From Candidatus Pacearchaeota archaeon (GTDB lineage: Archaea; Nanobdellota; Nanobdellia; Pacearchaeales; GW2011-AR1): a stretch of 64,000 nt of DNA. Positions within the stretch are counted from its first letter, which is position 1; every line of letters starts with the position of its first letter. The notes beneath the pieces are model-generated. The model was given only the letters and a program-made list of their open reading frames with translations. It made no database searches and was not told the origin of the DNA. Shown in pieces: positions 8,951 through 64,000 of the stretch. The DNA lies in NCBI GenBank assembly GCA_017609175.1, contig JAFCEJ010000003.1, forward strand, positions 13,374 through 77,373. Reading direction: 5' to 3'. The position numbers were made by a program, and so were the translations under genes.

Positions 8951-9589
8951 TTAAATTTCTTGTTCAAATTCCTTTTTTATTCCTTCTTTTGTAATTGAGA
9001 ATACATCTATCCCATAACCAGAACCGATATCCCGTTGCGTTGAAGATTTTAAAGCTTCGATTGCAAGTTCAACTCCTTGTTTAACGGTCATGTCTGGTTT
9101 ATATTGTCTTTCTAAAAGCCCTAGAACAAAAGGCATACCAGAACCAAAATTTGCATCATAATCTTCTACTTCTGTAATACTTCCTGCCGGTTCAATTGAA
9201 TATAATTTTACAGACCCGTCCTCATCTATTCCCCCTACTAAAGAACCAACAATGCTTGGAATTGGTGACATCTGCCGTATCTGAGAATAAGTTATTGTTG
9301 CTATTAAATTTGCAGATTGTTTTACTGTTGGTCTTGACTTTGAACGAAGCTCTTTTAATCTTAATTCTGCTGCGATTAATTTTTTTAGTCTCTGTATATC
9401 TGCAACTCCACCTGTTCCTGCAAAAAGCAAATAATCATTTATTTTTGCTACTTTTTTGGATTTTTTGCTCATAACAATGTTACCTGCTGTGCTTTGCCTA
9501 TCCGCAGCTATGACAATTCCGTCCTTGCAAACAATTCCAATTATACTTGTCCCTGATTTAAGGATTGAATTTTTTAGTTCTTGTTCCAT
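8951..9589 (-). CDS. psmB: proteasome beta subunit
   Basis: Propeptide followed by GTSIIGIVCKDGIVIAADRQ. Ntn-hydrolase layout. Confidence 0.9.
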   Translation of the reverse strand: MEQELKNSILKSGTSIIGIVCKDGIVIAADRQSTAGNIVMSKKSKKVAKINDYLLFAGTGGVADIQRLKKLIAAELRLKELRSKSRPTVKQSANLIATITYSQIRQMSPIPSIVGSLVGGIDEDGSVKLYSIEPAGSITEVEDYDANFGSGMPFVLGLLERQYKPDMTVKQGVELAIEALKSSTQRDIGSGYGIDVFSITKEGIKKEFEQEI

Positions 9590-9784
9590 TTTATTAATAA
9601 TAGAATAAAGCGTTAATTTTTCAGAATTTTTATAAGATTAGAGGGATGAGGTATTTTATAAAGGTTTTGGTTTTTGAACTTATGAAAAATACAAACCCTT
9701 AAATACCCTTTTCTTCTGGTTTAATCATGTTAGATAAATTTAGAAGGAGTAAGGTTTCTATTAATTAATATTCAGGAGGATAAA

Positions 9785-10087
9785 ATGGAAGTTAGTGAAT
9801 CTAAGATATATGTTGGGAATTTATCATTTAGTGTGAGTCAAGACCAGCTTAGAGAACTTTTTTCTGAGTTTGGAGAGATAACCGAAGTGACACTAATTAC
9901 TGATAAATTTTCTGGCAGGTCTAAGGGATTTGGTTTTATCGTTTTTGCAAAGAAAGAAGACGCAGAAAAAGCAATTGCAAAAATGAATGAAAAAGAAATT
10001 GAAGGAAGAGAACTTAAAGTGTCTAAAGCAAAACCAGTAGATCCAGACAGACCAAGAGGAAGAGATTTTAATAGAAGAAGATTTTGA
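9785..10087 (+). CDS. RNA-recognition-motif (RRM) RNA-binding protein
   Basis: RNP2 IYVGNL and RNP1 KGFGFIVF. SD caggagg lies 7 nt upstream. R-rich tail. Confidence 0.85.
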   Translation: MEVSESKIYVGNLSFSVSQDQLRELFSEFGEITEVTLITDKFSGRSKGFGFIVFAKKEDAEKAIAKMNEKEIEGRELKVSKAKPVDPDRPRGRDFNRRRF

Positions 10088-10415: not shown

Positions 10416-10688
10416 ATGCCTAGAGGAGATGGAACAGGTCCAAATGGAATGGGACCAATGACCGGAAGAGGAATGGGATATTGTGCAGGTTTTGCAGTCC
10501 CAGGTTTTATGAATGGTGGTTTTGGAAGAAGAAGGGGATTTGCATGGAGAGCAAGAGCTATGCCATTACAACAAATTCAGCCAGTAATGACAGAAAAACA
10601 AGAAAAACAATATCTTGAACAAGAATTAGAAATCTTAAAACAAGAAATGAAAGAAATAGAAAAAAGATTAAAAGAAATTAAAGGATGA
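10416..10688 (+). CDS. DUF5320-family protein
   Basis: MPRGDGTGPNGMGPMTGRGMGYCAG N-terminus plus C-terminal coiled coil. SD aaggagg. Confidence 0.7.
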   Translation: MPRGDGTGPNGMGPMTGRGMGYCAGFAVPGFMNGGFGRRRGFAWRARAMPLQQIQPVMTEKQEKQYLEQELEILKQEMKEIEKRLKEIKG

Positions 10689-11755
10689 AAGAAAAAGTAG
10701 CAGGACTTTCGGTATTTGCAAACCTCGTCTTAGCGACAGGAAAAATTTTAGTTGGAACTTTAGCAAATTCTGCATCAGTTTTAGCAGAAGGAATTCATTC
10801 TGGGATGGATGTTTTATCTTCAGGAATAAGTTTAATTGGAATAAAAATTGCAAAAAAGCCCGTGGACAAAAAACATCCTTATGGACATTATAAATTTGAA
10901 GTCTTAGCAGGATTATTAATTACAATAATATTATTTATAACAGGAGCAGGAATTATTTATGAAGCGTATCAGAGATTTTTATCTCCTTCTGAAATTAAAT
11001 TAGGATATCTTGCATTAGGAGTTATGCTTTTTTCTGCAGCAGTAAATGAAATAATGGCAAGATTAAAAATTTATTATGGAAAAAAAGAAAATTCAATTAG
11101 CTTACTTTCAGATGGCGTGCATTCAAGAGTTGATGTCTGGGCATCAGTTGCAGTTTTAAGTGGATTAATTTTAACAAAATATTGGAATTATGCAGATCCG
11201 TTGCTTGCATTATTAATAGGATTATATATAATAAAAGAATCATTTGAATTAGGCAAAGAAGCAACTGACTCGCTATTGGATGTTTCGGCTGGGGAAGAAG
11301 TCGAAGAGCAGATTAAGAAAATAGCAGAAAAACAAAATCTTAAAATATCAGAATTAAGAACCCAGAAAAAAGGTTCGGCAATCACAGCAAATTTGAAAAT
11401 TAAATTGCCTAGCAAATTAAGTGTTGAAGAAGCCACTAAAATATCTAACAGACTAAGAAAAAGATTAATAGATGAGATTGACCGCCTTGAATATGTCGCA
11501 ATACAAATAGAAAGCCATGACGTTTCAAATAGTTACTTTAAACCAACAGAAATGATTTCTAAGCTGGGATTTGGTAGAGGATTTGGTTGGCAAAGAAAAG
11601 GAAGATTCAAAAAGAGTATTGAAAAAGCTCAGGGAAAAGGACCAGAAGGATTTTGCATCTGCCCGAAATGTGGTTATAAACAAAAACATAAGAGAGGTGT
11701 TCCATGTTCAACAATTAAATGCCCTGTATGTGGAGAGAAATTAGAGAGAGAATGA
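10685..11755 (+). CDS. cation diffusion facilitator (CDF) metal transporter with extra C-terminal Zn-ribbon module
   Basis: Six TM helices with HSGMD/HSRVD metal-site motifs and a cytoplasmic CTD. Tail: GPEGFCICPKCGYKQKHKRGVPCSTIKCPVCGEKLERE. Confidence 0.85.
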   Translation: MKEKVAGLSVFANLVLATGKILVGTLANSASVLAEGIHSGMDVLSSGISLIGIKIAKKPVDKKHPYGHYKFEVLAGLLITIILFITGAGIIYEAYQRFLSPSEIKLGYLALGVMLFSAAVNEIMARLKIYYGKKENSISLLSDGVHSRVDVWASVAVLSGLILTKYWNYADPLLALLIGLYIIKESFELGKEATDSLLDVSAGEEVEEQIKKIAEKQNLKISELRTQKKGSAITANLKIKLPSKLSVEEATKISNRLRKRLIDEIDRLEYVAIQIESHDVSNSYFKPTEMISKLGFGRGFGWQRKGRFKKSIEKAQGKGPEGFCICPKCGYKQKHKRGVPCSTIKCPVCGEKLERE

Positions 11756-13541: not shown

Positions 13542-15764
13542 ATGGAAAAGAAGGTGATAAGAGTATCTGTCTTCTTAATTGTTCTATTGTTAATTATGCC
13601 TATTGCTTTTGCACAAAAAATGAGTGATGAAGATGAGAAAAAAGTAATCTCAATTACAAAAATAATAAAATCAATTGCAGGAAAAATTACTGGTTCTACA
13701 ATTACAGGTTATACTGCAGAAGAAGGGAAAACTACAACAGAGCCAGAAACCCAAGAAGAGCAAACTGAAACAGAAGTAAGTGAAGAAGAATCAGAAGAAC
13801 CTCAGGAAAGTGTTGAGGAGCAACCAGAAGAAACTGCAACAAAGTCAGAAGGAGCTACAGAGGAATCAGAAAGAGTTGAAGAAGAAAAAGAATATTTTGG
13901 CGAAGAAGAAATTCCAGAAGGATGTCATAAAATAACAACAGAAAGCGGAATGTTTCAGATAGAGTGTAGTTTTGATAAAGAAGGTTTTGAAGATTTTGAT
14001 TTAAAAGAGGAAATGGAAAATTGCGACGGTAAATTTGAAATGATTGAAGGCAAGCCTGTTTGTATTAAAAAAGGCAGGGTAGGTTTTGGAAGCACAGAAT
14101 GTCCAACACAAGAAGAATTAGACAATATTGCAACAAAATGCGAAGGAAAGGTTGAATATTTTACAGATGAATCAGGATGTTCTGCTGTAATGTGCATTAA
14201 TGAAAAGTTCAAAAAAGAATTTGATAATAGATTAAGAAAAAAATATGATAATGAACTACAAAGACAGGCAATTGAATGTAAAAAAGATGGTGGGAAATTT
14301 GTTCTTATTAAAGGGGAACCTAAATGCATCAAGGGAGTTCAGGAAACAATAATGATTAAAAGGGATTTAGGAACAATAACTGAGAAAGATATTAAGAATG
14401 CTGGCTCTAAATTAGATATGTTAGAAAGCAAATTAGAGGCAATAACTTCAAAATTAGAAGGAAAGCAAGGAGAAGTTTTTGATGAAGCTACTAAAAGATT
14501 AAAAGCTATTCAGAAAAAAATTGAAGATATTAAAACAAAATTAGCAACAGATTCTAATTTAACAAAAGAAGAAAGAATAGAAATTATTGCTGAAATGAAA
14601 GCTATTCAAAAAACTCTTTCTGATGTTACAATAGGAATTGTTAATGGAAAGATGCCCACTGAAGAAGATATTCATGAGGAAATGTTTGAACAGTTTGAAG
14701 AATTTTACGGAGGACCGTTCAAAAGCAAAGAAGAATTAGAGCAATGGGCTAAAAAGGAAAGAGATACTTTAGAAATTGTAAGAAATTGCGATAAATATGA
14801 AAGTGTTGAATCATTTGCCCCGCCAGACCCCGAGGGGATGGTTGTTAAAGTTGAACTTCAAGCAATAGATGGTGGAAGATGTCAAATGAAAATCCATACT
14901 GCAAAAGGAGGCATCGCAACATATTTAATTCCTCCGGAAATTTATACAACTTTTAGAGGACCTGAAGATTTGATAAAAGAAAACATTCCTTGTACAGGTG
15001 CTTGTGAATTTATGGAAAAGATGATGACAGAACCTCACGGACCGGGGGAAAATCCGGAAGCAGAAGCATGTATGGAAGAATGCATAAGAAAGGATTGTGA
15101 TAATGGTTTATTTGAATGTATGCTTGAGAACAAAGAAAAATGTGAAAAGGAATGTGGTTTTGGAAAAAGGGAAATGGAAGGTCCTCCTGGCATGGAAAAT
15201 ATGGGGGAAGAAGAACGTTGTATTATGGAATGCGTAGGGCCTGATGTGATGTGTAAGTCTGGACCAGAAGGAGAAGAAAATCCTAAATGTAAAGAATGTG
15301 CTGAAAAGTGTGCTAAAGAATTTTATAAAGGACCTTGTTTAAATGATGAACAACTAAAAGAAAAGGAAAAAGAGTGTGAATCAAAATGCGAACATTGTTA
15401 TGGTAAGCCAATAATGGGAGATTCTGGAGATGGTCGTGAATGTATAATAGGGATGGAGTGTAAAGATGCTTCAAGTGAATTTGGGGATGAGGCGGGGGAA
15501 GGTCCTGCAAACTTTGAAGAAGGACATGGACCTGGAGAAGAATTTGGCCCACCAGAAGAAGAAATTGCACCTATGACAGGAGAAGTTGTGAGTGGTGAAA
15601 ACCAAGGATTTTTTTCAAAAATAGTAAACTGGTTTAAATCTTTATTTGGAGGAGATAAAAGCTCAAAATCAGAAATTAGCAGCGGGGATAGTGTTGATGA
15701 TATTACAGAAGATTTAAGTAAGATTCAAAAAGATTTGGGTGATGTAAGTGAAAATATTGGATAA
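13542..15764 (+). CDS. secreted/anchored acidic, Cys-rich coiled-coil protein
   Basis: N-terminal signal/anchor VSVFLIVLLLIMPIAFA, E-rich linker, internal Cys repeats, coiled-coil centre, dense Cys C-terminal third. Confidence 0.6.
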   Translation: MEKKVIRVSVFLIVLLLIMPIAFAQKMSDEDEKKVISITKIIKSIAGKITGSTITGYTAEEGKTTTEPETQEEQTETEVSEEESEEPQESVEEQPEETATKSEGATEESERVEEEKEYFGEEEIPEGCHKITTESGMFQIECSFDKEGFEDFDLKEEMENCDGKFEMIEGKPVCIKKGRVGFGSTECPTQEELDNIATKCEGKVEYFTDESGCSAVMCINEKFKKEFDNRLRKKYDNELQRQAIECKKDGGKFVLIKGEPKCIKGVQETIMIKRDLGTITEKDIKNAGSKLDMLESKLEAITSKLEGKQGEVFDEATKRLKAIQKKIEDIKTKLATDSNLTKEERIEIIAEMKAIQKTLSDVTIGIVNGKMPTEEDIHEEMFEQFEEFYGGPFKSKEELEQWAKKERDTLEIVRNCDKYESVESFAPPDPEGMVVKVELQAIDGGRCQMKIHTAKGGIATYLIPPEIYTTFRGPEDLIKENIPCTGACEFMEKMMTEPHGPGENPEAEACMEECIRKDCDNGLFECMLENKEKCEKECGFGKREMEGPPGMENMGEEERCIMECVGPDVMCKSGPEGEENPKCKECAEKCAKEFYKGPCLNDEQLKEKEKECESKCEHCYGKPIMGDSGDGRECIIGMECKDASSEFGDEAGEGPANFEEGHGPGEEFGPPEEEIAPMTGEVVSGENQGFFSKIVNWFKSLFGGDKSSKSEISSGDSVDDITEDLSKIQKDLGDVSENIG

Positions 15765-29144: not shown

Positions 29145-30420
29145 AATCCAGTTGATCCTGCTGGCGGCTGCGGCTCTCTGATTTGTCTTAGACATGCAAG
29201 TTTTTACTCTTAGAAATAAGAGTAAAGCGAACTGCTCAGTAACACGTAGTTAATCTACCCTAAGGTCAGGGATAAGCTCGGGAAACTGAGTGTAACACCT
29301 GATAAAAAATATACTCTGGAATGGTATATATTTGAAACTCGAGCCTTAGGATGAGACTGCGGCTGATTAGGTTGTTGGCGGGGTAAATGCCCACCAAGCC
29401 GATGATCAGTAAGGGCTCTTAGCGGAGAGGCCCTGAGAGGGAATCTGAGACACTATTCCCAGCCCTACGGGGTGCAGCAGTTAAGAATCTTCTGCAATGC
29501 GCGAAAGCGTGACAGAGTGAATCAGAGTGCTTTTCTATCGAAAAGCTTTTGTATGGTGTAAAAAGCCATACGAATAAGGACTGGGTAAGACTAGTGCCAG
29601 CCGCCGCGGTAATACTAGCGGTCCAAGTCGCAGCCATCTTTATTGGGTCTAAAACATCCGTAGCTTGCTTGATAAGTTTTTTGTGAAATCCCATATCTCA
29701 AGTATGGGGCGAGCAAAAAGTACTATCAAGCTAGAGACTGGAAGACGTAAGGAGTACAATCAAGGTAGCGGTAAAATGTTTTAATCTTGGTTGGACTAAC
29801 AATAGCGAAGGCACCTTACGAGGACAGTTCTGACAGTAAGGGATGAAGGCCAGGGGCGCAAAACGGATTAGATACCCGTGTAGTCCTGGCAGTAAACACT
29901 GCACACTAAACATCAGTACCTCCTCGAGAGGTATTGGTGCTGAAGGGAAGCCGAAGAGTGTGCTACCTGGGAAGTATAGTCGCAAGGCCGAAACTTAAAG
30001 GAATTGGCGGGGAGACACTACAACGGGTGACGCGTGCGGTTCAATTAGATTCTACACTCGCCTTGGTAACAAGGATGAAAGTGTGGGCTACGTTAGGTGA
30101 GTACAGTCCAAATCCCCTGGGCGACACGCGCGCGTCAATGCTGGATACAAAGAGATGCGACTCTGAAAAGAGAAGCTAATCCCATAAAGTCCAGCCCAGT
30201 TCAGATTGAGGTTTGCAACCCAACCTCATGACGATGGAATCCGTAGTAATCGTTCGTTAGCAGCGAACGGTGAATATGTCCCTGTCTCTTGCACACACTG
30301 CCCGTCAAACCAACCGAGTTATGTTAGGGTGAAACTCTTTTGAGGAGAACTTTAGCATGACAAGGTAGGTTAAGTCGTCACAAGGTATCTGTAGGGGAAC
30401 CTGCAGATGGATCACCTCCT
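29145..30420 (+). rRNA. rrs: 16S rRNA, only ~1276 nt (internal ~190-nt segment absent)
   Basis: 5' aatccagttgatcctgc; gtgccagccgccgcggtaatac (29594); ggattagatacccg (29866); aaacttaaaggaattggcgggg (29991); cttgcacacactgcccgtca (30288); 3' ggatcacctcct. Confidence 0.9.
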
Positions 30421-34986: not shown

Positions 34987-35098
34987 TGGGACAGCGGGGA
35001 GTCGAACCCCGGACACCTAGATATCTGAGCATTTATTTGGTTAATGAAATTATAATTTAACTCTTCAGTCTAGTGCTCTCCCGCTGAGCTACTGCCCC
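34987..35098 (-). tRNA. tRNA-Phe(GAA) with 40-nt intron at canonical 37/38 position
   Basis: Hand fold: GGGGCAG-TA-GCTC-AGCGGGA-GAGC-A-CTAGA-CTGAAG[intron 35062..35023]A-TCTAG-GTGTC-CGGGG-TTCGACT-CCCCG-CTGTCCC-A. ttttataaa lies about 30 nt upstream. Confidence 0.85.
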
Positions 35099-35407: not shown

Positions 35408-35959
35408 ATGAAAAATAAAAAAGCTGCGATGGAGATGAGTGTTGGAACAATTGTAACTATAGTTTTACTTATGAGTGTTTTAGTTCTTGGAGTTGTTTTG
35501 GTACAAAAAATTTTCAAAAGCGCAACATCTAGTATTGATGATATTGACCAATCTGTAAAAAATGAAATTAGCAAATTATTTTCTCAGGACGAATCAAAAA
35601 GGATAGTCATTTATCCTTCCTCAAGAAAAATAAGTATTAAAAAGGGGGAGCAGGGGCAGGGATTTGCGTTTTCAATAAGAAATGTTGGAAAAGAAGCAGA
35701 TAGTTTTACATATGAAATTGCTGCAGAAGAAACCGGTTGTAAAGAACTAAATGTTGAAGAAGCAGATAATTTTATTGAATTGGGAAGGTCTGGTGAAATC
35801 AAAATTCCCGCTGGACAGATTATGGAAAATCCAAAACTTGTAACATTTAATATCCCAGGAGATGCTCCGCCTTGCCCTGTAAGTTATCTCATAAATGTGG
35901 AAAAAGGCGGAGAAATATATACTTCTGTTAGCATAATCCTAAATATTAAAGGAGAATAA
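35408..35959 (+). CDS. type-IV-pilin-like protein (class III signal peptide)
   Basis: N-terminus MKNKKAAMEMSVGTIVTIVLLMSVLVLGVVLV. Starts 1 nt after the upstream stop. Confidence 0.5.
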   Translation: MKNKKAAMEMSVGTIVTIVLLMSVLVLGVVLVQKIFKSATSSIDDIDQSVKNEISKLFSQDESKRIVIYPSSRKISIKKGEQGQGFAFSIRNVGKEADSFTYEIAAEETGCKELNVEEADNFIELGRSGEIKIPAGQIMENPKLVTFNIPGDAPPCPVSYLINVEKGGEIYTSVSIILNIKGE

Positions 35960-51468: not shown

Positions 51469-52461
51469 TTATCTTCTCATTGCAATATTTAATAAATCAA
51501 ATGGCTTTTTTGTTCCTTTATATTTTGCAAAGAGAACAATTAAAATAAGAATTACCAAAATAATTATTCCCCATCCAAAAATTTTCCAGGGAGGGGTTTT
51601 TGGTTTTTCCTTACAAGTTCCTAGACAACATTTTTCATCGAGAGCGTATTCAAATTCTCCCACACATATTTCATTTTGAGAACAAATTTCTCCTTTCATT
51701 TCAAAGCAGGTCTTTATTGCTTGCGGAGAAGGTTCTTCTTTTTTGTTTTCTGTGGGTTTTTCAATGTTTTGTGTTTCTTCATCTTGATTTTTTTCGTCTT
51801 TTTTTCCATCAATAGAATCTTGTGGATTGAGAAAAATATAAACAGGGACTTCATAAGTCAGATTATCTGTACTTAATTTTATTATTTGCAACCCAGATTC
51901 AAAATTAACGATATTAAAATCTATTTTTTTTGTTTCTCCAGGATTAAGAACTATTTGCTCATCCGAACCGCCAAATAAAGAAGAGAAAAATCCCCCAGAT
52001 TGTTCTGTTTCTATTTTTATTTCAATTTCAGAATTTTGCAGGTTTTTTAATTCTATAAAGAAATCATCTTTTGCCATAACAAAACCGGGATTAATATTAA
52101 AATCTGCTATTTGTTCGGAAATTGAAAAATTCTTTTTTATTTCTTCGTCTGTAGATTGTCCATTTTCAATATGTCTCACATTTTCTATGGCGATGGAATA
52201 ATTTTTTTTATTCTCTGTCTTTGGAAGAATCGCATAAATATAAACGCTATCATTTATTTTTGCGAGGTCATATTCAATCGGAACCCTAACATGCCCCCTA
52301 TAAAAGAAGATATTTTCATTGAGAATTGGCTGTAAAAAGTCTCCTGAAACTTTTGCAATTAACGTTTCTTGGGAATTAAACTCTGTTTTCATACTTATAT
52401 TAACAGATGAAATGAAAGGTAAAAAAAAGATTAAGAAAAAAATAAAAAATATTTTTTTCAT
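51469..52461 (-). CDS. surface protein with Cys-knot stalk and C-terminal TM anchor
   Basis: Signal peptide IFFIFFLIFFLPFISS. Stalk CFEMKGEICSQNEICVGEFEYALDEKCCLGTCKEKP followed by a TM helix. Confidence 0.6.
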   Translation of the reverse strand: MKKIFFIFFLIFFLPFISSVNISMKTEFNSQETLIAKVSGDFLQPILNENIFFYRGHVRVPIEYDLAKINDSVYIYAILPKTENKKNYSIAIENVRHIENGQSTDEEIKKNFSISEQIADFNINPGFVMAKDDFFIELKNLQNSEIEIKIETEQSGGFFSSLFGGSDEQIVLNPGETKKIDFNIVNFESGLQIIKLSTDNLTYEVPVYIFLNPQDSIDGKKDEKNQDEETQNIEKPTENKKEEPSPQAIKTCFEMKGEICSQNEICVGEFEYALDEKCCLGTCKEKPKTPPWKIFGWGIIILVILILIVLFAKYKGTKKPFDLLNIAMRR

Positions 52462-52462
52462 T

Positions 52463-54031
52463 TTAACTTCCGATTTCTTTTAATTTTTTTAGAATATCTG
52501 AAAATTCTTTTTCTTTTGGACTTTTCGGTTTTGGCATAATTGGGCGTCTTGATTGCGTTGGCTGACGGCCCGAAGGCAAAATTCTTCTTGGTCTTATTCT
52601 TGGTCCTGGTGTTGCAGGAGGAAGAAATCCTGGTGGAGCGGGTCCCTGCGAAGAACTCGGAGCACCACCTCCCCTACCAAAACCATGTTTTAACCTAAAC
52701 CAATAAGGACGTATCCTGTCTCTAAAAATTATTCCAATTATTGTCAAAATAATTAAAAAAACTAAGACCCAAATATACCAATAACTTTTTTTCTCATCTT
52801 TTTCAGAATCTTTATCTGAATCACTTTCACTATCATCTGGAATTGGTTTTTCTTTGCAAGTTCCTAGACAACACCTTCCGTCACTTGAATCAACTGTCTT
52901 TCCATCACATTCTTCTCCATAAGAGCAAAGCTCCCCGTTTAACTCATCACAAGATTCCAAATCTTCGTCTGATGGTTCTGGAACTGAAACTTCTTCTGGC
53001 CATACAGAATATAAAATAAACGCTGTTTCTGTAACTCCCCGCCAACAACCGTCTTCATTCTGAACATCTAATAACCATTTAATAGCATCTGATTTTTGCG
53101 GGGAATCATCATTTTGTAATGCATATAATGCAAGTGCAGTATCATAATACTTATTGTCAGATTCTTCCCAATAATGATCAGTAGGGGTTTGTTTTAATAG
53201 CAAATTATCATAATAATCCTCGTTTTCTGTTAATAGATATAAGAAAGCTTCTGGGAGATATTTTTTATTTTCATCCATCATTGAAACGAGATAAGGCAAA
53301 TAGTAATTGATATTATAACCTTTTTTATTTAATGCCAGTGCAGCCCACAAAGTTGATTCATAATCACAAGAGTCATCTTTTTTAAAACATAAAGAATTAA
53401 CTTTTTCTTCTGTTGTTCCATCAGCTGATGCAGAATGTATCTCTGAAAGATAAATTGTTGAGGAATCTTTTTTCTTGTATAAAAGATTTGTAAAAAATTG
53501 TTTATCGCAAGATATTGAAAATTTCTCGTCAAAGCAACTTGGTGAAATCTCCAACCAATAACCTCCTTGTGCTAAAGTTAAACAACTTCCTGCTCTTGCA
53601 TTTATTTTTTTATTCTCATCAATCTCAATTGTGTGTTCTGTGCTATAAGAGATTTTACAGGTTGTCGGCTCAGAACTTTCAATTTGTAAATACCAAGTAA
53701 GTTCTGAAGGGGGTTGGGTTTGAGATTGTAACCAATCCTCTACTTTTCCTGTATCAAAACCGACCCTATCTAATGCCAAAATTGCTTGAGCAGTTGTTTT
53801 TGCATCTTTCTTTAATATAGAAACTACCTCGCTTTTACATTTAGAAACAGCCAACAAGGAAAAAACCTGTTCTTCTATTGAGAGTTCTGAACATTTCTTT
53901 TCATTTATCTTATTTCTCAAACAAGTATAAGCATCATTTACTTTTTCAGACTCAGTTTCTGCAAAAGCAAAGGAAATTGAAATTAAAAGAAATACAACTA
54001 AAATTCCGAATACAAACCTGCCTTTATTCAT
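52463..54031 (-). CDS. surface protein with terpenoid-cyclase/prenyltransferase-like (QW) repeats, Cys stalk, TM anchor and P/R-rich tail
   Basis: AIKWLLDVQNEDGCW, TALALYALQ and WAALALNKKG repeats. Stalk CDELNGELCSYGEECDGKTVDSSDGRCCLGTCKEKP followed by TM YIWVLVFLIILTIIGIIF. Confidence 0.6.
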   Translation of the reverse strand: MNKGRFVFGILVVFLLISISFAFAETESEKVNDAYTCLRNKINEKKCSELSIEEQVFSLLAVSKCKSEVVSILKKDAKTTAQAILALDRVGFDTGKVEDWLQSQTQPPSELTWYLQIESSEPTTCKISYSTEHTIEIDENKKINARAGSCLTLAQGGYWLEISPSCFDEKFSISCDKQFFTNLLYKKKDSSTIYLSEIHSASADGTTEEKVNSLCFKKDDSCDYESTLWAALALNKKGYNINYYLPYLVSMMDENKKYLPEAFLYLLTENEDYYDNLLLKQTPTDHYWEESDNKYYDTALALYALQNDDSPQKSDAIKWLLDVQNEDGCWRGVTETAFILYSVWPEEVSVPEPSDEDLESCDELNGELCSYGEECDGKTVDSSDGRCCLGTCKEKPIPDDSESDSDKDSEKDEKKSYWYIWVLVFLIILTIIGIIFRDRIRPYWFRLKHGFGRGGGAPSSSQGPAPPGFLPPATPGPRIRPRRILPSGRQPTQSRRPIMPKPKSPKEKEFSDILKKLKEIGS

Positions 54032-56137: not shown

Positions 56138-56209
56138 CGAGAATCAATAGAAATAAATAAATATTAATTTCATAGAAGAATTTTTAAAGAATTTTATCTT
56201 CTAAAAAAC

Positions 56210-56983
56210 ATGAAAAGGGGTATGAGCAAAAGAGGACAAATTACTATTTTTATTGTTGTAGCAGTGATAATTGTTGCTCTTGCAGGAATAATCTATTTAG
56301 TTTATCCAAAAATCACTCATCCAAATGTTGTTTCAACAACTCCGACAGAATATATTCAAGATTGTATGGAAAATGAGATTAAAGAAGTTGCCGAAGAAAT
56401 TTCTATGCATGGGGGGGATTTAGAACCAGAATTCTATGCAGAATATTTTGAAGATGGAAAAAAATACACTGTAGAGTATTTATGTTATACCAAAGAATAT
56501 TACAAACAATGTGTTATGCAACAACCACTGTTGAAATCACATATTGAATCTGAAATAAAAGAAGCTATTAAAAATAAAGCCACAAAATGTTTTAATAATT
56601 TAGAAGAATCATATAAGAAAAAAGGATATGAAGTTAGTTTGACCCGTAATGATTATAGTGTTGAATTATTGCCGAATAAAATTTTCGTTGTTTTTGATTA
56701 TCCTTTAACCTTAACAAAAGGTGGTTCTGACAAATATACCAAATTTGAAGTTGATGTAAAAAGTAATTTGTATAGGTTGGTTACAATAGCTCACAAAATT
56801 TTAAAATGGGAGGCACAATACGGCGATTCAGATATTTCAATGTACATGGATACTAACTATTGGCTAAAAGCAGAAAAGAAAAAGAAAACAGATGGAACTA
56901 AAATTTATATTTTGACAGATAAAGAAAGTAATGAAAGGTTTATGTTCGCGTCACGAAGTGTTGCTTGGCCTCCAGGTTATTAA
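56210..56983 (+). CDS. pilin-like (class III signal) protein 1
   Basis: MKRGMSKRGQITIFIVVAVIIVALAGIIYL. Confidence 0.55.
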   Translation: MKRGMSKRGQITIFIVVAVIIVALAGIIYLVYPKITHPNVVSTTPTEYIQDCMENEIKEVAEEISMHGGDLEPEFYAEYFEDGKKYTVEYLCYTKEYYKQCVMQQPLLKSHIESEIKEAIKNKATKCFNNLEESYKKKGYEVSLTRNDYSVELLPNKIFVVFDYPLTLTKGGSDKYTKFEVDVKSNLYRLVTIAHKILKWEAQYGDSDISMYMDTNYWLKAEKKKKTDGTKIYILTDKESNERFMFASRSVAWPPGY

Positions 56984-56988
56984 ATAAA

Positions 56989-58470
56989 ATGAACAGAAGA
57001 AAAGCATTAATGGTCGGAATGATTTTTTTATTGGTTATTATTTTAATTGGTTTTGTTTCTGCAAGTTATTGTTGTGAAAAGACTAAAAAAGGTGCATGGT
57101 GCCAACCTGTAGATAGTAAAAAAGAGTGTGCAGAGGGATTTAAAATAGCTCAAACAGGATGTGAATCAACAAGTTATTGTAAATTCGGAACATGTATTAA
57201 TTTTAAAGAAGGAACCTGTGACCCAAATACAGCTCAAAAAACTTGTGAGGCAAATGGAGGGACATGGGATGAAAGAGACATAACCGAAATACCTCAATGC
57301 AAAGAAGGTTGTTGTGTCTTAGGGTCAAAAAGCATTTTTGACACATTAACAAGATGTAAAAAATTGTCTGCAGATCAAGGATTTGAAACAGATTTCAGGC
57401 GAAATATTCGAACTGAAAAAGAGTGTAGTTCGCTTAGTGGATTAGAAACCAAAGGAGCATGTGTTTTTAAAGAAGATTTGAAAAGGACATGCAAATTCAT
57501 AACAAAAAAAGAATGTATGAAGATAGGAGAATCAAGGAATGTTTCTTTTTATGAAAAGATATTATGCTCTTCTGAAAAACTTGGAACAGACTGCGGACCT
57601 TCTAAAAAAACAACATGCCATGATGGAAAAGTTTATTTTGTAGATACTTGCGGGAATTTGGCAAACATATATGACGCTGACAGACAAGATGATGCATATT
57701 ATTGGACGTATGTAATAGATATCAAAGATGTTAAATGTGATGATGGAAAAGGGAACATAAACTCCAAAACCTGTGGTCTATGTGATTATCATGCAGGAAG
57801 CACTTGCGGGGCTAAAAGGCTTGGAGAAAATCCAAAATATGGTGATTATATTTGCAGAGATTTAAGTTGCGAATATAAGGGAAAAAGATACAAACATAAA
57901 GAAAGATGGTGTGCAAAATCAGAAGACGGAAATAAGGGCACTGAAAAAAATCTGCCTGGAAGCGAACATTTTGTTTTAGAATGTAGGGATGGGGAAGTAA
58001 GAGTTGTAGACGAATGTAGAGACTGGAGAAATATGATTTGTGTTGAAGAAAAAGTTGATGGGAAGATGAATGCTATATGCACTACAAATAAATGGCAAGA
58101 TTGCACTGAGCAAGACAATAAAAAAGATTGCTTAAATGAAAATGTTAGAGATTGTGTATGGGTAGAAGATGAATTTAAAACATCGTGGTCAAATCTGAAA
58201 TGTGTTCCAAAATATGCGCCGGCATTTGATTTCTGGGAAGGAGAAAAATCAGGGATTTATTGTTCTAAAGGAACAGTCACGTGCGAAGTTACTTATGAAA
58301 AAAAGATTGGTGGAAAATGGGAATGTGTTCATAATTGCTATTGTTTAGAAAAAAAATGGCTGAATAGAATGAATACAATATGTAATGCTTTGGGAGATTG
58401 TGGAGTTGGTGTAAATTATATTGGAAAAAAAGGATGGTATGAATTAAATGATTTATTACATAAAAAATAA
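56989..58470 (+). CDS. secreted/anchored Cys-rich protein (~43 Cys in 493 aa)
   Basis: MNRRKALMVGMIFLLVIILIGFVSA followed by dense Cys throughout. Confidence 0.6.
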   Translation: MNRRKALMVGMIFLLVIILIGFVSASYCCEKTKKGAWCQPVDSKKECAEGFKIAQTGCESTSYCKFGTCINFKEGTCDPNTAQKTCEANGGTWDERDITEIPQCKEGCCVLGSKSIFDTLTRCKKLSADQGFETDFRRNIRTEKECSSLSGLETKGACVFKEDLKRTCKFITKKECMKIGESRNVSFYEKILCSSEKLGTDCGPSKKTTCHDGKVYFVDTCGNLANIYDADRQDDAYYWTYVIDIKDVKCDDGKGNINSKTCGLCDYHAGSTCGAKRLGENPKYGDYICRDLSCEYKGKRYKHKERWCAKSEDGNKGTEKNLPGSEHFVLECRDGEVRVVDECRDWRNMICVEEKVDGKMNAICTTNKWQDCTEQDNKKDCLNENVRDCVWVEDEFKTSWSNLKCVPKYAPAFDFWEGEKSGIYCSKGTVTCEVTYEKKIGGKWECVHNCYCLEKKWLNRMNTICNALGDCGVGVNYIGKKGWYELNDLLHKK

Positions 58471-58471
58471 A

Positions 58472-60535
58472 ATGCGTTTTAGTAAAAAAGGAAAAATTGC
58501 GATAGGAGAAATTTTAATCTTAATAATTGCAACTTTTGCATTTGCGTGGATGGTTGGAGGAAGTATTGGATTTGTGAAGGGGGGAGAAGACTATGATGGC
58601 CTTGAAAATTATTATGATAACGCTATGCCTTCTCCTCGGGAGGATGATGGTTCTACCAATCAGGAAAAAAAGGAGGTAATTGAAGGTGTTGCAAAAACAT
58701 GGTCTCTTAAGGAAATATCTTCAATAGTTAAACACCCTATTATGATAAATTTTGCGTATGCTTCAGCGGTTTATTTGGCAGTTGAAATGGTTGGAGGATT
58801 AGCGGATTTAGAAAAAGACCAAGTTGATGCAGCTTCAAAATCTGCATTTGTTGGAACATTTATGGGAAGAGCTATTGGACAGGGGATTTATCGGGCTGGG
58901 GAAAAGGCTGGAGAAAAAGAAGCAACTGGGTGGATAGTAAAAAGTGTTCCTAAAGCTAAAAAATTTTTTACATTGGGAGAAAAACTAACAACATCTACTT
59001 CTGTGGCAGTATTTTGGGGAACAGTAATTGCAGTAGGAATTTTTTTAGCGACATACAAAAACAAAAAAACAAAAATAGTTACTTTTGAATGTAAATCATG
59101 GCAAGCACCGAGTGGAGGAAAAGATTGTGAAAAATGCAATGAAAATGAATTATTCCCCTGCTCAGAATATCAATGTCGTGCTTTGGGACAAGGTTGTGAA
59201 TTAGTTGATGGCAAATGTATCTGGAAAAATAAAAAAGATGCAAAATATCCTATAATAACTTTAGACAAAAACGCATTAAACGAAGGGTATGAGTATGTTG
59301 GAATAAATGAAAGAGGAGCAAGAATTGTCAAAAAGGGTTCTGAAACTGGTTGTGTAGATTGGTCTACCCCTTTAAGCTTTGGAATAAATACAGATGAATC
59401 TGCAATTTGTAAAATAGATTATGAAAGAAAAGAAAAATTTGAAGAAATGGAATATACATTTCCTGGAAAAGGTTATCATCATGTTATCCAACTGCCAACA
59501 GGTCTTTTAAAAGTAAATTCGTCAACAGAAAGTCCAATAATTAACAAAGAAGGAGATTATGAGTTTTACATTAGATGCCAAGATGGAAATGGAAATTCAA
59601 ATACTGCAAATTTTGTAATTAAATTCTGTGTTGAAGCAGGACCAGATTTAGAAACACCAATAATTGTTACAACAAGTATAAGAGAAGGGGGATATTTCAA
59701 ATATGGATTAAAAGAGATTAAAGACTTTAAAATCGGTGTAAATGAACCAGCAGAATGTAAATGGAGCAGACAAGATAAGTCGTATGAAGATATGGAAAAC
59801 ACAATGGATTGCTCAACAGAAGAAACTGAAATAAATCTTCAGATGTTATATGAATGTTCAACAACATTAAATGGTTTAGAGGATGGAAAAGAAAATAAAT
59901 TCTATTTCAAATGTAAGGACAAAAATGGAAATATAAATAAAGAATCTTATGAATTCATATTAAAAGGAACAGAAGGAAAATTAAATATTGATTCTGTATC
60001 TCCAGAAGAAGGGGTTGTAAGGGGTTCAACAAAACCTGTTAAAGTTGAACTTGAAGTTGAAACTTCTTCAGGAGCAGAGGAAGGAAAAGCATATTGCTAT
60101 TATGGTGAAACAGAAGATTATGAATCTGGGTTATTTAGTGAAACTAACTCTTATCATCACAAGCAAGAATTACGATTAGACCCAGGAGATTACAAATTTT
60201 ATATTTGGTGCATTGATAACGGAGGAAATGAAGCAAAAACCACTGTAAGTTTCAAAGTAGAATCAGATGATGAAGCGCCGATAGTCGTAAGAGCATATAA
60301 AGATGGATATGATTTAAAGATAATTACAAATGAAGAAGCAGAATGTGTTTATGGCACAAAAGACTGTAACTACTTTTTCAAAGATGGAACATTAATGGAT
60401 ACTATTGATGATAGGGAGCATTATATTGATATAGAAGAGAACAAAGATTTAACATATTATATTAAATGTAAGGATAATTATGGTAACGAGCCATCGTCAG
60501 GATGCAGTATTGTTATAAAACCTACTAGTTTTTAA
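58472..60535 (+). CDS. large pilin-like/adhesin-like protein with four tandem beta-type repeats
   Basis: MRFSKKGKIAIGEILILIIATFAFAW, two further hydrophobic helices, a Cys cluster, then 4 repeats ending (Y/F)(Y/F)(I/F)xCxDxxGN. Confidence 0.6.
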   Translation: MRFSKKGKIAIGEILILIIATFAFAWMVGGSIGFVKGGEDYDGLENYYDNAMPSPREDDGSTNQEKKEVIEGVAKTWSLKEISSIVKHPIMINFAYASAVYLAVEMVGGLADLEKDQVDAASKSAFVGTFMGRAIGQGIYRAGEKAGEKEATGWIVKSVPKAKKFFTLGEKLTTSTSVAVFWGTVIAVGIFLATYKNKKTKIVTFECKSWQAPSGGKDCEKCNENELFPCSEYQCRALGQGCELVDGKCIWKNKKDAKYPIITLDKNALNEGYEYVGINERGARIVKKGSETGCVDWSTPLSFGINTDESAICKIDYERKEKFEEMEYTFPGKGYHHVIQLPTGLLKVNSSTESPIINKEGDYEFYIRCQDGNGNSNTANFVIKFCVEAGPDLETPIIVTTSIREGGYFKYGLKEIKDFKIGVNEPAECKWSRQDKSYEDMENTMDCSTEETEINLQMLYECSTTLNGLEDGKENKFYFKCKDKNGNINKESYEFILKGTEGKLNIDSVSPEEGVVRGSTKPVKVELEVETSSGAEEGKAYCYYGETEDYESGLFSETNSYHHKQELRLDPGDYKFYIWCIDNGGNEAKTTVSFKVESDDEAPIVVRAYKDGYDLKIITNEEAECVYGTKDCNYFFKDGTLMDTIDDREHYIDIEENKDLTYYIKCKDNYGNEPSSGCSIVIKPTSF

Positions 60536-60570
60536 AAAAAGTTTATAAGGAATGAACATCTCATTATTCT

Positions 60571-60990
60571 ATGACGATAGATGAAAAAAGAGGGCAGATT
60601 AAACTATCTTTTGGTATGATTTTTTCAATTATTCTTATAATTATCTTTCTTATTTTTGCTTTTTATGGCATCAAAATGATTCTTAATTTTCAAAAAGAGG
60701 CAAATATTGGAAAGTTTGTAAATGATTTGCAAAATGATGTTAACAAAATGTGGCAAAATTCTGGTTCACAGATTAAAACATATATCTTGCCAAAAAATAT
60801 TGAAGAGGTTTGTTTCAACGAAGATTCTAAAATTTATTTCAAACCATTTGGAACAGGCGGAGAATTTGATTATATGGAAATAAAACACTTGGATGTTAAG
60901 GAACCTTTTTGCATAAAGAATAATGGTAAAATCAAAATCAGAATTAAAAGAGATGAGGATGTTTTAGTAACTATTGAAGAATCTGAATAA
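60571..60990 (+). CDS. pilin-like (class III signal) protein
   Basis: EKRGQIKLSFGMIFSIILIIIFLIFAFYGI. Confidence 0.55.
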   Translation: MTIDEKRGQIKLSFGMIFSIILIIIFLIFAFYGIKMILNFQKEANIGKFVNDLQNDVNKMWQNSGSQIKTYILPKNIEEVCFNEDSKIYFKPFGTGGEFDYMEIKHLDVKEPFCIKNNGKIKIRIKRDEDVLVTIEESE

Positions 60991-60991
60991 A

Positions 60992-61924
60992 ATGAGAACA
61001 ACGGCTTGGAATAAAAGAGGTTATTTGCAGATTCCTTTTTCATGGATTTTTGCAATTATTATTGGAACTTTTATTTTATTTTTAGCGATTTTTTTTGTGA
61101 CAAAAATGATGAGTTCTGAACAAACACAACTTGATGCAACAACCGCCAAACAAATTAGTATCCTTATGAATCCGCTTGAAACTGGTTTTGAATCAGAAAA
61201 AACAACAACAATGATTTTGCCGTCAGGAACAAGAATAATTAATCGATGCAATAATATAGGTGTATTTGGAACTCAGAAGATAAAAGTTTCTCAGAAAATT
61301 TTTAATAAATGGACAGAAACAGATACTGAAATTAGTTCGCATAACAAGTATATTTTTTCAGACAAGTTTGTTGAAGGAAAAAAATTTTATTTATCATCAA
61401 TGGTTTTTGAATATCCTTTCAAGGTTGCTGATTTAATTTTTTTGACCTCAAAAGAGTATTGTTTTTTAGACGTGCCAGAAGAAATTAAAAATAAAATCCC
61501 GAATCAAGAGAATATTAAAACTGAAAAAGAAAAATGTTCCGAAGAAAGTGTTAAGGTTTGTTTTGATTATGGCTCTGATTGTGATATTGAAGTTAATTAC
61601 CCCATGAAATATGTTGAAAAAGAAGGAGAGAAATTATATTTCACAGGCAATTTGATATATGGTGCTATTTTTGCAGATAAAGAAATTTATGAATGTCAAA
61701 TTAAAAGATTAATGCAAAGAGTAGAGCAATTAGCTTCACTGTATGAAGAAAAATCATCTTTCCTTTCTCAAAAAAACTGTGATTCTGGGTTAGATTTAGA
61801 CTTACTGCAACTAGAAAACTCAGCAAAAAATTTTGAATCTTCAAAAGATTTTGACTTTATGGACCCACTTGTTGAAACAATTGAGAATAAAAACGAATTT
61901 GGAGGTAATTGCCAATTATGGTAA
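60992..61924 (+). CDS. pilin-like (class III signal) protein
   Basis: MRTTAWNKRGYLQIPFSWIFAIIIGTFILFLAIFFV. Confidence 0.5.
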   Translation: MRTTAWNKRGYLQIPFSWIFAIIIGTFILFLAIFFVTKMMSSEQTQLDATTAKQISILMNPLETGFESEKTTTMILPSGTRIINRCNNIGVFGTQKIKVSQKIFNKWTETDTEISSHNKYIFSDKFVEGKKFYLSSMVFEYPFKVADLIFLTSKEYCFLDVPEEIKNKIPNQENIKTEKEKCSEESVKVCFDYGSDCDIEVNYPMKYVEKEGEKLYFTGNLIYGAIFADKEIYECQIKRLMQRVEQLASLYEEKSSFLSQKNCDSGLDLDLLQLENSAKNFESSKDFDFMDPLVETIENKNEFGGNCQLW

Positions 61925-62436
61925 TGAAAAAAGCACAATTAAAAATCCAGCAAATGGCATTTATGTTAATAGCAGTTACACTGCTTTTCGCATTCGTAGG
62001 ATTGTTTATTATTGGAATTAAGTTTTCTGGATTAAAACAAACAGCTACAAGCCTTGAGGAAGAAAATGCGATGTTATTAGTTTCAAAACTGGCAAATTCT
62101 CCAGAATTTTCATGTGGTAAGGTATTTTCATTTGGAAAAACAAATTGCATTGATGCTGACAAAGTAATGATGCTAAAAGATAATGAGAATTATAAAGGAT
62201 TTTGGGGGGTAAATGAAATTAAAATTAAGAAAATTTATCCGCAAAATAATGAAAATATTGAATGTACTATGGAAAATTACCCTAATTGTAATATAATAAC
62301 AGTTTATTCTGATAATTCTGAGAATAGAAATTATAAACAGAATTTTGTAAGTTTATGTAGAAAAGAAATGGTTGAGAATAGTATTTATGATAAATGTGAA
62401 CTGGCTAAATTAATGGTTAGTTATGAAGCAAAATGA
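61918..62436 (+). CDS. pilin-like (class III signal) protein
   Basis: MVMKKAQLKIQQMAFMLIAVTLLFAFVGLFIIG. Start overlaps the upstream stop. Confidence 0.5.
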   Translation: MVMKKAQLKIQQMAFMLIAVTLLFAFVGLFIIGIKFSGLKQTATSLEEENAMLLVSKLANSPEFSCGKVFSFGKTNCIDADKVMMLKDNENYKGFWGVNEIKIKKIYPQNNENIECTMENYPNCNIITVYSDNSENRNYKQNFVSLCRKEMVENSIYDKCELAKLMVSYEAK

Positions 62437-62885
62437 ATAAGATAAAAAAGAAAGGGCAAGAAGAAATGGTTGGATTTGCACTAATAATCATAATAGTTGC
62501 TGTATCTCTGCTGATATTTCTAAGTTTTTATTTAAGAAAACCGTCTGAGGAAAATTTAATTGAAAGTTATGAAGTAAAAAGTTTTATTCAATCAGCTCTT
62601 CAATATACCATAGAATATGAATCAGAGTATATATCTATAAGAAAATTAATTAAAAAATGTGGTAATTATGATGAGGGATGTGAAGAGTTACAAAGTGAAT
62701 TAGAGAACATGATGGAAAAGGCTTGGACAGTAAAAGATGGGGGTGTTATAAAAGGCTATAATTTAGAAATTGTCTTAAAGGATAAAGAAATATTAAAAAT
62801 CGAAAAGGGCGATAAAACCCCTAATTATAAAAGTTCATATCAAGAATTAGACAACATAGAAATAAGAATAAAGATTTATTATTAA
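62433..62885 (+). CDS. pilin-like (class III signal) protein
   Basis: KKKGQEEMVGFALIIIIVAVSLLIFL. ATGA overlap with the upstream gene. Confidence 0.55.
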   Translation: MNKIKKKGQEEMVGFALIIIIVAVSLLIFLSFYLRKPSEENLIESYEVKSFIQSALQYTIEYESEYISIRKLIKKCGNYDEGCEELQSELENMMEKAWTVKDGGVIKGYNLEIVLKDKEILKIEKGDKTPNYKSSYQELDNIEIRIKIYY

Positions 62886-63235
62886 ACTTTTAAATGAATT
62901 GTTATTGAATCTACAACAATTTCTGGTCGATATCTTTTCCTATTTTTTGTTTTTTCTTCGATTAAATCAATAAAGCCAAATCTTTCTAATAATTTGATGT
63001 CATCATTTACAGATTTAAATCCCCTTCCAAGTTTTTTGGCTAAATCATAAATAGATTTTGGTTTTTGGGTCTTGATTACATATAAAATACGCGCTTTTTC
63101 GTTGCTAAGAAGCTGTCTCAGAGCAAAAATTCCTGAAAAGTCATAATCTTTTTTTCCTCTACCAAATATGCTAAAGGCTCCTTTTGATTCTGTTATTGTT
63201 ATTTCTCTTATTTTTGTCTTTTCTTTTTTTCCCAT
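62882..63235 (-). CDS. winged-helix DNA-binding protein (putative transcriptional regulator)
   Basis: ARILYVIKTQKPKSIYDLAKKLGRGFKSVNDDIKLLERFGFI is HTH-like. Confidence 0.5.
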   Translation of the reverse strand: MGKKEKTKIREITITESKGAFSIFGRGKKDYDFSGIFALRQLLSNEKARILYVIKTQKPKSIYDLAKKLGRGFKSVNDDIKLLERFGFIDLIEEKTKNRKRYRPEIVVDSITIHLKV

Positions 63236-63649: not shown

Positions 63650-64000
63650 ATGTTTAATTTCAAAAAAATATCAGCAGTTTTGACTAGTGTAGTTATGCTT
63701 GGTTCTACTATGGGTATTGCTGCAGCTGCTAATTATCCATCACCTTTTATAAGCGGTGGAACAGCTAATGTAGCAGTTGTTTATGGTTCAAGTTCACCAA
63801 ATGGTGTTGACCAAATCCCAGCTATAAGTATCCAAGCAGATTTGCAATCTAAGATGCCTTCAACTACAACAGGAACAACTGCAACTGCTAGTGGAGGAGA
63901 TAGTGTGCAAATTACAAGAGGCTCTGAAAAATTGAATTTAGGAGACGGAATCGCAACAGTATGGGGAACATCATTAACAGATAGTGATCTTCCTACATTG
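63650..64000 (+). CDS. secreted S-layer-like surface protein, N-terminal fragment (runs off window)
   Basis: SD aaaggaggt. Signal peptide MFNFKKISAVLTSVVMLGSTMGIAAAA followed by NYPSPFISGGTANVAVVYG, then a T/S-rich stretch. No stop before nt 64000. Confidence 0.55.
   Translation, partial: MFNFKKISAVLTSVVMLGSTMGIAAAANYPSPFISGGTANVAVVYGSSSPNGVDQIPAISIQADLQSKMPSTTTGTTATASGGDSVQITRGSEKLNLGDGIATVWGTSLTDSDLPTL

Follow-up and report, generated by a model that had tools for sequence, protein, structure and literature searches.

A conserved gene cluster encoding predicted type-IV-pilin-like envelope proteins in Pacearchaeota and Woesearchaeota

Pacearchaeota and Woesearchaeota are abundant, uncultivated and host-dependent archaea. 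A groundwater study described Pacearchaeota as unusually firmly attached to their hosts, yet stated that DPANN archaea are without type IV pilus (T4P) components. The question considered here is what is encoded by a cluster of seven consecutive genes (G1-G7, positions 56210-62885, plus strand) in a 64,000-nucleotide stretch of a Candidatus Pacearchaeota archaeon genome (contig JAFCEJ010000003.1, positions 13,374 to 77,373; this whole stretch is referred to below as the window). The reading that we favour, with moderate confidence, is that the cluster encodes new families of type-IV-pilin-like envelope proteins, which would carry class III (prepilin-like) signals with an EppA-type processing site. 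The families are specific to DPANN archaea of the Pacearchaeota/Woesearchaeota type, and the cluster is probably a core surface structure of this lineage; its members would act in a surface fibre or pseudopilus. The open reading frames (ORFs) that had been reported in the original prediction were recovered by the ORF calls with the same coordinates and sizes (aa, amino acids; a caret marks the predicted cleavage site):

56210-56983, plus strand: G1, 257 aa, starting KRG^QITIF..., with a floppy linker and an alpha/beta globular domain with four conserved cysteines
56989-58470, plus strand: G2, 493 aa, a secreted protein rich in cysteine (43 residues), whose signal peptide or anchor is of the ordinary Sec type
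58472-60535, plus strand: G3, 687 aa, with a pilin-like N-terminal helix (K-K-G^K-I-A-I-G-E) and a variable linker
60571-60990, plus strand: G4, 139 aa, small pilin-like protein, KRG^QIKLSFGMIFSIILII
60992-61924, plus strand: G5, 310 aa, pilin-like but larger, starting KRG^YLQIPFSW... and containing invariant cysteines
61918-62436, plus strand: G6, 172 aa, small pilin-like protein, KKA^QLKIQQMAF..., with six invariant cysteines
62433-62885, plus strand: G7, 150 aa, small pilin-like protein, KKG^QEEMVGF..., its start overlapping the G6 stop (ATGA)

The main evidence lies in the N-termini. Six of the seven proteins (G1 and G3-G7) open with N-K-[KR]-[G/A/S]^Q (or K/Y in place of Q) followed by a hydrophobic helix of about 20 aa, exactly as had been quoted in the original prediction, G2 being the exception. 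Alignments of 21-54 orthologues per family yielded one logo common to the families, N-K-[K/R]-[G/A/S]^Q. Position -1 was occupied by small residues throughout (G1, G47/A7; G3, G14/S3/A1; G4, G38/A12/S2; G5, G44/A9; G6, A29/G19/S3; G7, A24/G21/S5), and K/R predominated at positions -2 and -3. The short basic N-region, K/R at -2 and G/A/S at -1 of class III signals were thereby found. Glutamine at +1 was invariant in G1 (Q10; 54/54 orthologues and 120/120 in a second set), G6 (51/51) and G7 (50/50) and was present in 41/52 sequences of G4; residue +1 was Y/A/F in G5 and variable in G3. Beyond the predicted site, K+3 was invariant in G6 (51/51), G7 carried E+2 in 48/50 and E+3, G+6 and F+7 in 50/50 orthologues, and the G4 segment LSFGMIFSIILI was nearly invariant. 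The helix measured about 20-25 aa in all six proteins and was hydrophobic from +2 in G1. Pilins characteristically have an N-terminal helix that is more conserved than the globular part. The same distribution was obtained for G4-G7 when the mean majority frequency was compared between positions +1 to +25 of the predicted mature protein and the remainder (0.73-0.79 versus 0.54-0.61; G4, 0.77 versus 0.54).

The specificity of this pattern was scored in 80 related loci, which were fetched, subjected to ORF calling and assigned by phmmer, hidden Markov models (HMMs) and all-against-all BLAST. The motif [KR]x0-1[GAS]Q directly before an N-terminal helix was present in 209 of 239 proteins (G1, 65/79; G4, 41/57; G6, 53/53; G7, 50/50), as opposed to none of the 48 G2 proteins and 10 of the 224 other proteins with an N-terminal helix from the same loci. 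Within the window, a single ORF among the 11 others with an N-terminal helix resembled the motif, and it was a G4 paralogue (35408-35959). The N-terminal pattern is well beyond chance. A pilin identity of G2 was rejected, an ordinary signal peptide being found in all 48 orthologues.

The predicted sites have the form of those described for the Epd pilins of Methanococcus maripaludis, which are processed at RAQI, KGQV, KGQV, KGQL and KGQI by the peptidase EppA, which requires the +1 glutamine (PMC4371748). The corresponding sites in the window are KRGQI, KRGQI, KKAQL and KKGQE. No other single argument for a site of prepilin-type cleavage is as strong as this likeness, cleavage itself being a prediction. 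The claim of class III N-termini was thus supported by cross-genome conservation, by G/A/S at -1 and K/R at -2, and by the invariant Q+1 in three families.

The cluster is kept in relatives. Conservation had been set beforehand as one of the points on which the original prediction could fall, and it was not refuted there. In the protein collection, G3 had over 220 homologues (E below 1e-3), and its relatives occur in at least 553 GTDB species-representative genomes of Pacearchaeota/Woesearchaeota; G1 and G6 had 771 and 1540 homologues, respectively. Nearly all of the G1 and G6 homologues were unnamed or 'hypothetical' and lacked a Pfam domain, and the automatic JGI labels of two G1 homologues were evidently spurious. 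Named homologues of the cluster proteins came nearly all from metagenome-assembled genomes (MAGs) of Nanoarchaeota, Pacearchaeota or Woesearchaeota. The commonest complete order was PCNA - G1' - G3' - G1 - G2 - G3 - G4 - G5 - G6 - G7 - winged-helix gene (minus strand), and the shorter order without G1'-G3', as in the window, was found in several genomes. The cysteine patterns of G1 and G4-G7 were conserved across orthologues; an extracellular location of the C-terminal domains is suggested because the cysteines are conserved and mostly even-numbered.

The surroundings of the cluster were likewise recurrent. Genes for PCNA and primase lie immediately upstream of it in the window, which is low in GC (about 30%) and also carries an archaeal rRNA operon and the RNase P RNA. 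The further elements that bear on the cluster are:

56181-56189, plus strand: TATA-like box TTTTTAAAG, 21-29 nt before the G1 ATG
60542-60549, plus strand: TATA-like box TTTATAAG, 22-29 nt before the G4 ATG
62882-63235, minus strand: antisense winged-helix regulator of the HVO_A0114 family (PF25212, E 2.3e-15)
63650-64000, plus strand: 5' part of a gene for an S-layer-like protein with a signal peptide, preceded by a strong GGAGG at 11 nt and continuing beyond the window
35408-35959, plus strand: stand-alone G4 paralogue, 183 aa, starting MKNKKA^AMEMSVGTIVTIV...

Both genes that the original prediction had placed after the cluster were found there. The PF25212 match identifies the antisense winged-helix gene, which converges on G7 with a 4-nt overlap and diverges from the S-layer-like gene; it was present in 45 loci, with a median distance to G7 of -4 nt. 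An orthologue of the S-layer-like ORF (about 818 aa) followed it in 43 loci, and the homologue in one relative (L002) gave a weak S_layer_C match. Farther out stood two bitopic proteins (34 and 32 loci) and then pacearchaeosortase (24 loci; NF033505, 225 bits), which suggests that the S-layer or neighbouring proteins bear a C-terminal sorting signal. As a whole, the region forms an island of cell-envelope genes. Pacearchaeosortase is located, for example, at 10630-11166 (minus strand) in L026, about 10.5 kb downstream of G3; the window ends sooner. A literature search for this cluster, HVO_A0114 and pacearchaeosortase yielded nothing specific.

The cluster tolerates insertions at the G1-G2 and G2-G3 junctions. 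Two HepT/MNT toxin-antitoxin pairs were seen in L002, at 7297-7918 (between G1 and G2) and 9377-10008 (between G2 and G3), and genes for an acetyl/methyltransferase and a radical SAM protein were inserted in the cluster of L004. Divergent relatives carried a GT4 glycosyltransferase between G2 and G3 (L063, 4647-5660; L084, 8038-9042; Glycos_transf_4, E 1e-28 to 1e-30), a hint that the cluster may be tied to glycosylation. These eight-transmembrane proteins had been considered as prepilin peptidases and were rejected as such on the basis of the GT4 assignment. Two further observations concern the placement of the K-G-Q motif. The G4, G6 and G7 homologues of L002 (12186-14872) share an extra leader, MKNK(K)GQIPARG..TWGKNAQ, which puts a second K-G-Q upstream of the conserved one and looks like gene conversion or a duplicated cleavage site. 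A conserved downstream protein of about 225-245 aa combines a long cytoplasmic N-region, K-G-Q-I, 6-8 polar residues and a membrane helix, so that the motif is atypically placed (L002, 19457-20185; L026, 9456-10160; L033, 7933-8607; and others).

The stop and start coordinates confirmed the abutting and overlapping junctions that had been noted within the cluster: the G1 stop at 56983 and G2 ATG at 56989, the G2 stop at 58470 and G3 ATG at 58472, the G4 stop at 60990 and G5 ATG at 60992, ATGGTAATG at 61918 (G5/G6) and ATGA at 62433 (G6/G7). Gene callers placed the G3 start at 58448, giving 695 aa instead of 687. Successive ORFs are spaced by 5, 1, 35, 1, -7 and -4 nt, the 35 nt between G3 and G4 being the sole real intergenic gap. 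Median gaps in approximately 50 genomes were 1 nt for G4-G5, -7 nt for G5-G6, -4 nt for G6-G7 and -4 nt for G7 and the winged-helix gene. The G3-G4 junction was loose in relatives (median gap of 153 nt; above 300 nt in 22/57), and G4-G7 were all missing downstream of G3 in 11 of the 46 loci with enough flank, while a twelfth (L027) lacked G4 only. The box TTTTTAAAG may be a promoter for a leaderless or short-leader G1-G3 transcript, and TTTATAAG is a candidate internal promoter for G4-G7. Their spacing was judged by general knowledge of archaeal promoters, and the 30% GC inflates the frequency of TATA-like strings, which makes the boxes weak as evidence. The loose G3-G4 junction, the loci without G4-G7 and the TATA-like box before each unit, which are weak as purely sequence-based evidence, point to a cluster that probably consists of two units, G1-G3 and G4-G7, rather than one. 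Thus, of the single transcript with coupled translation proposed in the original prediction, the tight coupling holds within each unit, whereas the one transcript is uncertain, given the box before G4 and the loose G3-G4 junction.

The two members that the original prediction had called far larger than structural pilins were found at the sizes given, but G3 is not a simple giant pilin. The G3' paralogue of L002 (1232 aa) aligned with G2 over residues 58-533 (E 9e-67), and its residues 630-1230 aligned with G3 residues 109-685 (E 9e-84). Since both proteins align to this fusion paralogue, G2 and G3 together are the split form of one protein, and G3, one half of it, has extra membrane segments. 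In the full protein, a cysteine-rich secreted module is followed by a hydrophobic, glycine-rich segment, another cysteine-rich module and approximately four immunoglobulin-like (Ig-like) repeats; in the split form, G3 gains a pilin-like N-terminal helix of its own. After its linker, G3 continues with the glycine-rich hydrophobic region (approximately aa 95-196), the cysteine-rich module and about four Ig-like repeats, which are Y_Y_Y/DUF4625/Big_13-like (Y_Y_Y and DUF4625 matches at E of about 1e-8).

AlphaFold2 models of G1 and G6 were built with alignments of 120 sequences. The G6 model (pLDDT, the predicted local distance difference test score, of 88.6) consisted of a single 56-residue helix (4-59) followed by a small four-stranded sheet, which fits the overall 'lollipop' layout of pilins. 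Profile-profile comparison of G4, G5, G6 and G7 revealed likeness at the N-terminus only (G4 versus G6, 74% probability), the heads being unrelated. G5 cross-matched the G4 HMM (E 7e-7), and the N-terminal similarity was common to G4, G5, G6 and the 35408 ORF. The latter matched the G4 family HMM over residues 2-75 (E 4.5e-8), has a beta-rich C-terminal half and gave no Pfam or NCBIfam match; its product may be an unlinked pilin, possibly the major one. It lies just upstream of an ORF read by eye as cysteinyl-tRNA synthetase. The G4 profile aligned below threshold with the alpha1 helix of the type IV pilin PilE1 (8pfb_G, E 0.34), one G6 homologue (X0VXT6) is named 'PilX N-terminal domain-containing' in UniRef, and faint DUF7288/DUF7289 matches were obtained in only 1-3 G7 homologues. 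No family was assigned to G1, G2 or G4-G7 in Pfam or NCBIfam, and neither database detected a solute-binding or enzymatic domain in the seven proteins.

Several of the results weigh against a pilin assignment and have to be set beside the evidence above. Positions +2/+3 are occupied by K or E in G4, G6 and G7, where the hydrophobic stretch begins at +4 to +7; under the FlaFind rule, only G1 would be expected to pass. The +5 glutamate of Epd pilins has no counterpart: G1 has F at this position, G4 and G5 have S, G6 has Q and G7 has V. The G1 model (pLDDT 90) shows a membrane helix (8-35), a stretch of low confidence (34-40) and a compact alpha/beta domain, that is, a flexible break after the membrane helix and not a continuous alpha1 helix, so that G1 is better described, at the level of the model, as an anchored globular protein. 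G3 has extra hydrophobic segments that are foreign to classical pilins. Foldseek searches of the PDB with the G6 and G1 models returned no pilin (best E 0.32 and 0.01, TM score below 0.2), in a comparison that is weak for pilins, as most solved pilins are without the N-terminal helix and the G6 head is small. In the structural check proposed in the original prediction, the modelled architecture of G6 was thus pilin-like, and Foldseek gave no pilin match. Profiles of G1 and G3-G7 found nothing below E 0.26 among PDB sequences; the window proteins matched no curated pilin, archaellin or class III family in Pfam and NCBIfam up to E 0.1; and at the same cutoff Pfam searches with 54 G1, 51 G6 and 50 G7 homologues gave no pilin family, only transmembrane-helix noise.

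The same holds for the assembly machinery. No secretion ATPase, platform protein or prepilin peptidase is encoded in the window, as the original prediction had stated, nor did the 10 kb on either side of the cluster in 80 relatives yield a secretion ATPase signature, a platform or an A24 peptidase; the groundwater preprint likewise reports DPANN genomes to be missing T4P components. P-loop motifs in the 64 kb were confined to a GTPase (1274) and Rad50 (17735), and the polytopic proteins near the cluster in relatives were a glycosyltransferase, exchangers, PSH and a sortase. The sole GxGD protease in the window, at 6084-6992 (minus strand; YD and GGGD motifs), was rejected as a prepilin peptidase, since Pfam (SPP, E 8e-12) and NCBIfam (IMP_arch_presen) identify it as a presenilin-type PSH. 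A PSH homologue was also located about 2 kb from G3 in L073. The absence of linkage is ordinary, because in archaea the genes for pilins commonly stand apart from the operon for ATPase and platform (Makarova et al. 2016, PMC4858521). According to the same survey, S-layer-like proteins and unlinked pilin genes recur in archaeal T4P systems, and the cognate pilins of a nanoarchaeal T4P ATPase clade could not be found. The literature on T4P machinery in DPANN archaea is split: a comparative study annotates FlaI/J/K in Woesearchaeota, and a 2026 preprint describes Epd-like 'system 1' loci in some DPANN.

These findings could be accommodated if the N-termini were uncleaved signal anchors of type II that keep a heteromeric envelope complex permanently in the membrane, with this complex tethering, organising or helping to assemble the S-layer and with K-G-Q serving topology or helix packing rather than proteolysis. 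Such a complex would suit the position of the cluster next to the S-layer gene, followed by the two bitopic proteins and pacearchaeosortase (24 loci), the T4P machinery nearby in none of the 80 genomes and reported to be lacking in DPANN, the anchor, floppy linker and globular head of G1, the extra membrane segments of G3 and the lack of a pilin family or fold match. It leaves unexplained, however, why four or five otherwise unrelated families have an invariant Q after a small residue and K/R, and why G2 and 96% of the other anchored proteins in the loci are without the motif; moreover, an anchor helix usually varies more than any other part of a protein, whereas here the helices are the most conserved. 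We regard this explanation, the main rival, as somewhat unlikely.

Alternatively, the proteins might be cleaved and remain non-filamentous, as in the Sulfolobus bindosome or the large class III proteins of Haloferax, the processed N-termini serving only to oligomerise and to park globular proteins (G1, and G3 with G2) at the surface without an extended pilus. Substrate-binding proteins and further large proteins with class III signals are known from the literature, the heads of G1, G3 and G5 are large, and the cluster itself shows no evident major pilin that is small, abundant and duplicated; but the stand-alone G4 paralogue could supply such a subunit, the small G4, G6 and G7 and the larger G5, with their near-invariant helices and tight coupling, resemble a minor-pilin priming set, and no solute-binding or enzymatic domain was detected. 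This alternative appears rather unlikely to us. A chance or annotation artefact of an AT-rich, K/I-rich genome, in which approximately 30% GC inflates the K, I, F and N content as well as TATA-like strings, is refuted by conservation and has a probability close to nil: each ORF has hundreds to more than 1500 homologues (E down to 1e-170), the gene order is kept in dozens of genomes, the cysteine patterns are kept and the AlphaFold2 models are confident.

Under the favoured reading of pilin-like proteins with prepilin-type sites, G1 and G3-G7 would each insert N-in/C-out via the N-terminal helix, as the conserved and mostly even-numbered cysteines suggest, and a prepilin-type GxGD peptidase encoded elsewhere would cut after G/A/S and expose Q. 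The conserved helices of G4-G7, products of a tightly coupled sub-operon, would bundle into a minor-pilin-like core that nucleates or forms a short fibre or pseudopilus. G1, with its novel alpha/beta head, and the G2+G3 pair would sit at the S-layer, either on this core or next to it, the cysteine-rich and multi-Ig modules of the pair being likely to function in adhesion. The ATPase and platform powering assembly would be unlinked from the cluster, and the 35408 paralogue may be a further pilin, perhaps the major one. A more novel reading, which appears unlikely, sees in the cluster the structural core of a lineage-defining surface organelle of Pacearchaeota/Woesearchaeota, its products being either the 'missing' pilins of DPANN or the parts of a pilin-derived envelope scaffold or host-contact organelle that is independent of the machinery. 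The latter may dispense with the canonical ATPase and platform and be processed by another GxGD protease, e.g., the PSH of the window; it would then be a fixed, S-layer-spanning scaffold presenting the cysteine-rich, multi-Ig G2/G3 adhesin for host attachment. The cluster may also be linked to episymbiosis, which the original prediction had put forward as an inference.

Pilin-like gene clusters that are often unlinked from the machinery and often near S-layer-like genes are of an already known kind in archaea. What is new are the undescribed families and the conservation of the cluster as a hallmark of a large uncultivated lineage, in which the gene set is near-universal and unannotated, comprising six or seven new families that are all 'hypothetical'. 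They provide concrete candidates for the surface fibre or adhesin of Pacearchaeota/Woesearchaeota, and the profile-ready families would allow better annotation of thousands of MAG proteins. If the genomes prove to be without the machinery, pilin-type N-termini would have been reused outside the type IV filament system.

The window contains other elements of interest. Two adjacent secreted proteins (51469-52461 and 52463-54031, both on the minus strand) share the C-terminal motif C..G..C.....C.G...CCLGTCKEKP followed by a membrane anchor; the product of 52463-54031 also has a proline-rich cytoplasmic tail, and neither has a family match. The 740-aa secreted protein encoded at 13542-15764 (plus strand) is very acidic and cysteine-rich with a coiled-coil middle and no significant family match, and is another unannotated envelope protein. 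An Rfam tRNA over 112 nt at 34987-35098 (minus strand) is absent from the ARAGORN results and probably contains an intron. The 16S rRNA (29145-30420, plus strand) covers the full model in 1276 nt, which is shorter than usual.

Among known systems, the Epd pili of M. maripaludis (system 1) are comparable to the cluster in several respects. The form of the site, K/R-G/A^Q-[I/V/L], with the conserved +1 glutamine is the same, several differing pilin-like genes stand in a row together with large adhesin-like proteins, and the Epd major pilin lies outside its locus, in parallel with the stand-alone 35408 paralogue; system 1 has also been reported in some DPANN. However, the Epd locus holds an ATPase, two platform genes and EppA, none of which occurs in the window or within ±10 kb in the 80 relatives, the cluster proteins have no +5 glutamate, and no sequence or profile similarity to the described Epd or class III signal families was detected. 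Bacterial minor-pilin sets (FimU-PilVWX, GspHIJK, ComGD-GG) consist, like G4-G7, of four consecutive, coupled and unequal genes, one of which is about twice the size of the others, and their helices are likewise more conserved than the heads. The UniRef PilX label of one G6 homologue and the weak alignment of the G4 profile to PilE1 alpha1 (E 0.34) point the same way, but the heads show no significant homology (Pfam, PDB, Foldseek). Bacterial minor pilins have F/M at +1 and E at +5, in contrast to the archaeal-type site with Q at +1 in the cluster, which also stands without a neighbouring major pilin or machinery genes and in the context of an archaeal S-layer. The sugar-binding proteins of the Sulfolobus bindosome and the large FlaFind-positive Haloferax proteins resemble G1, G3 and G5 in having a pilin-type N-terminus on a big extracellular head; unlike them, the cluster is without a solute-binding domain and forms a fixed multi-gene array with small pilin-like partners. 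Finally, pilin-like genes accompanied by an S-layer gene and multi-Ig proteins, as found here, are known among the S-layer-like and adhesin accessories of archaeal T4P and archaellum loci (Makarova et al. 2016; 2026 type IV filament (TFF) preprint). The locus differs from these in that it seems to border on the main S-layer gene and that gene's own regulator, and in that the multi-Ig G3 itself carries a pilin-like N-terminus and a membrane hairpin.

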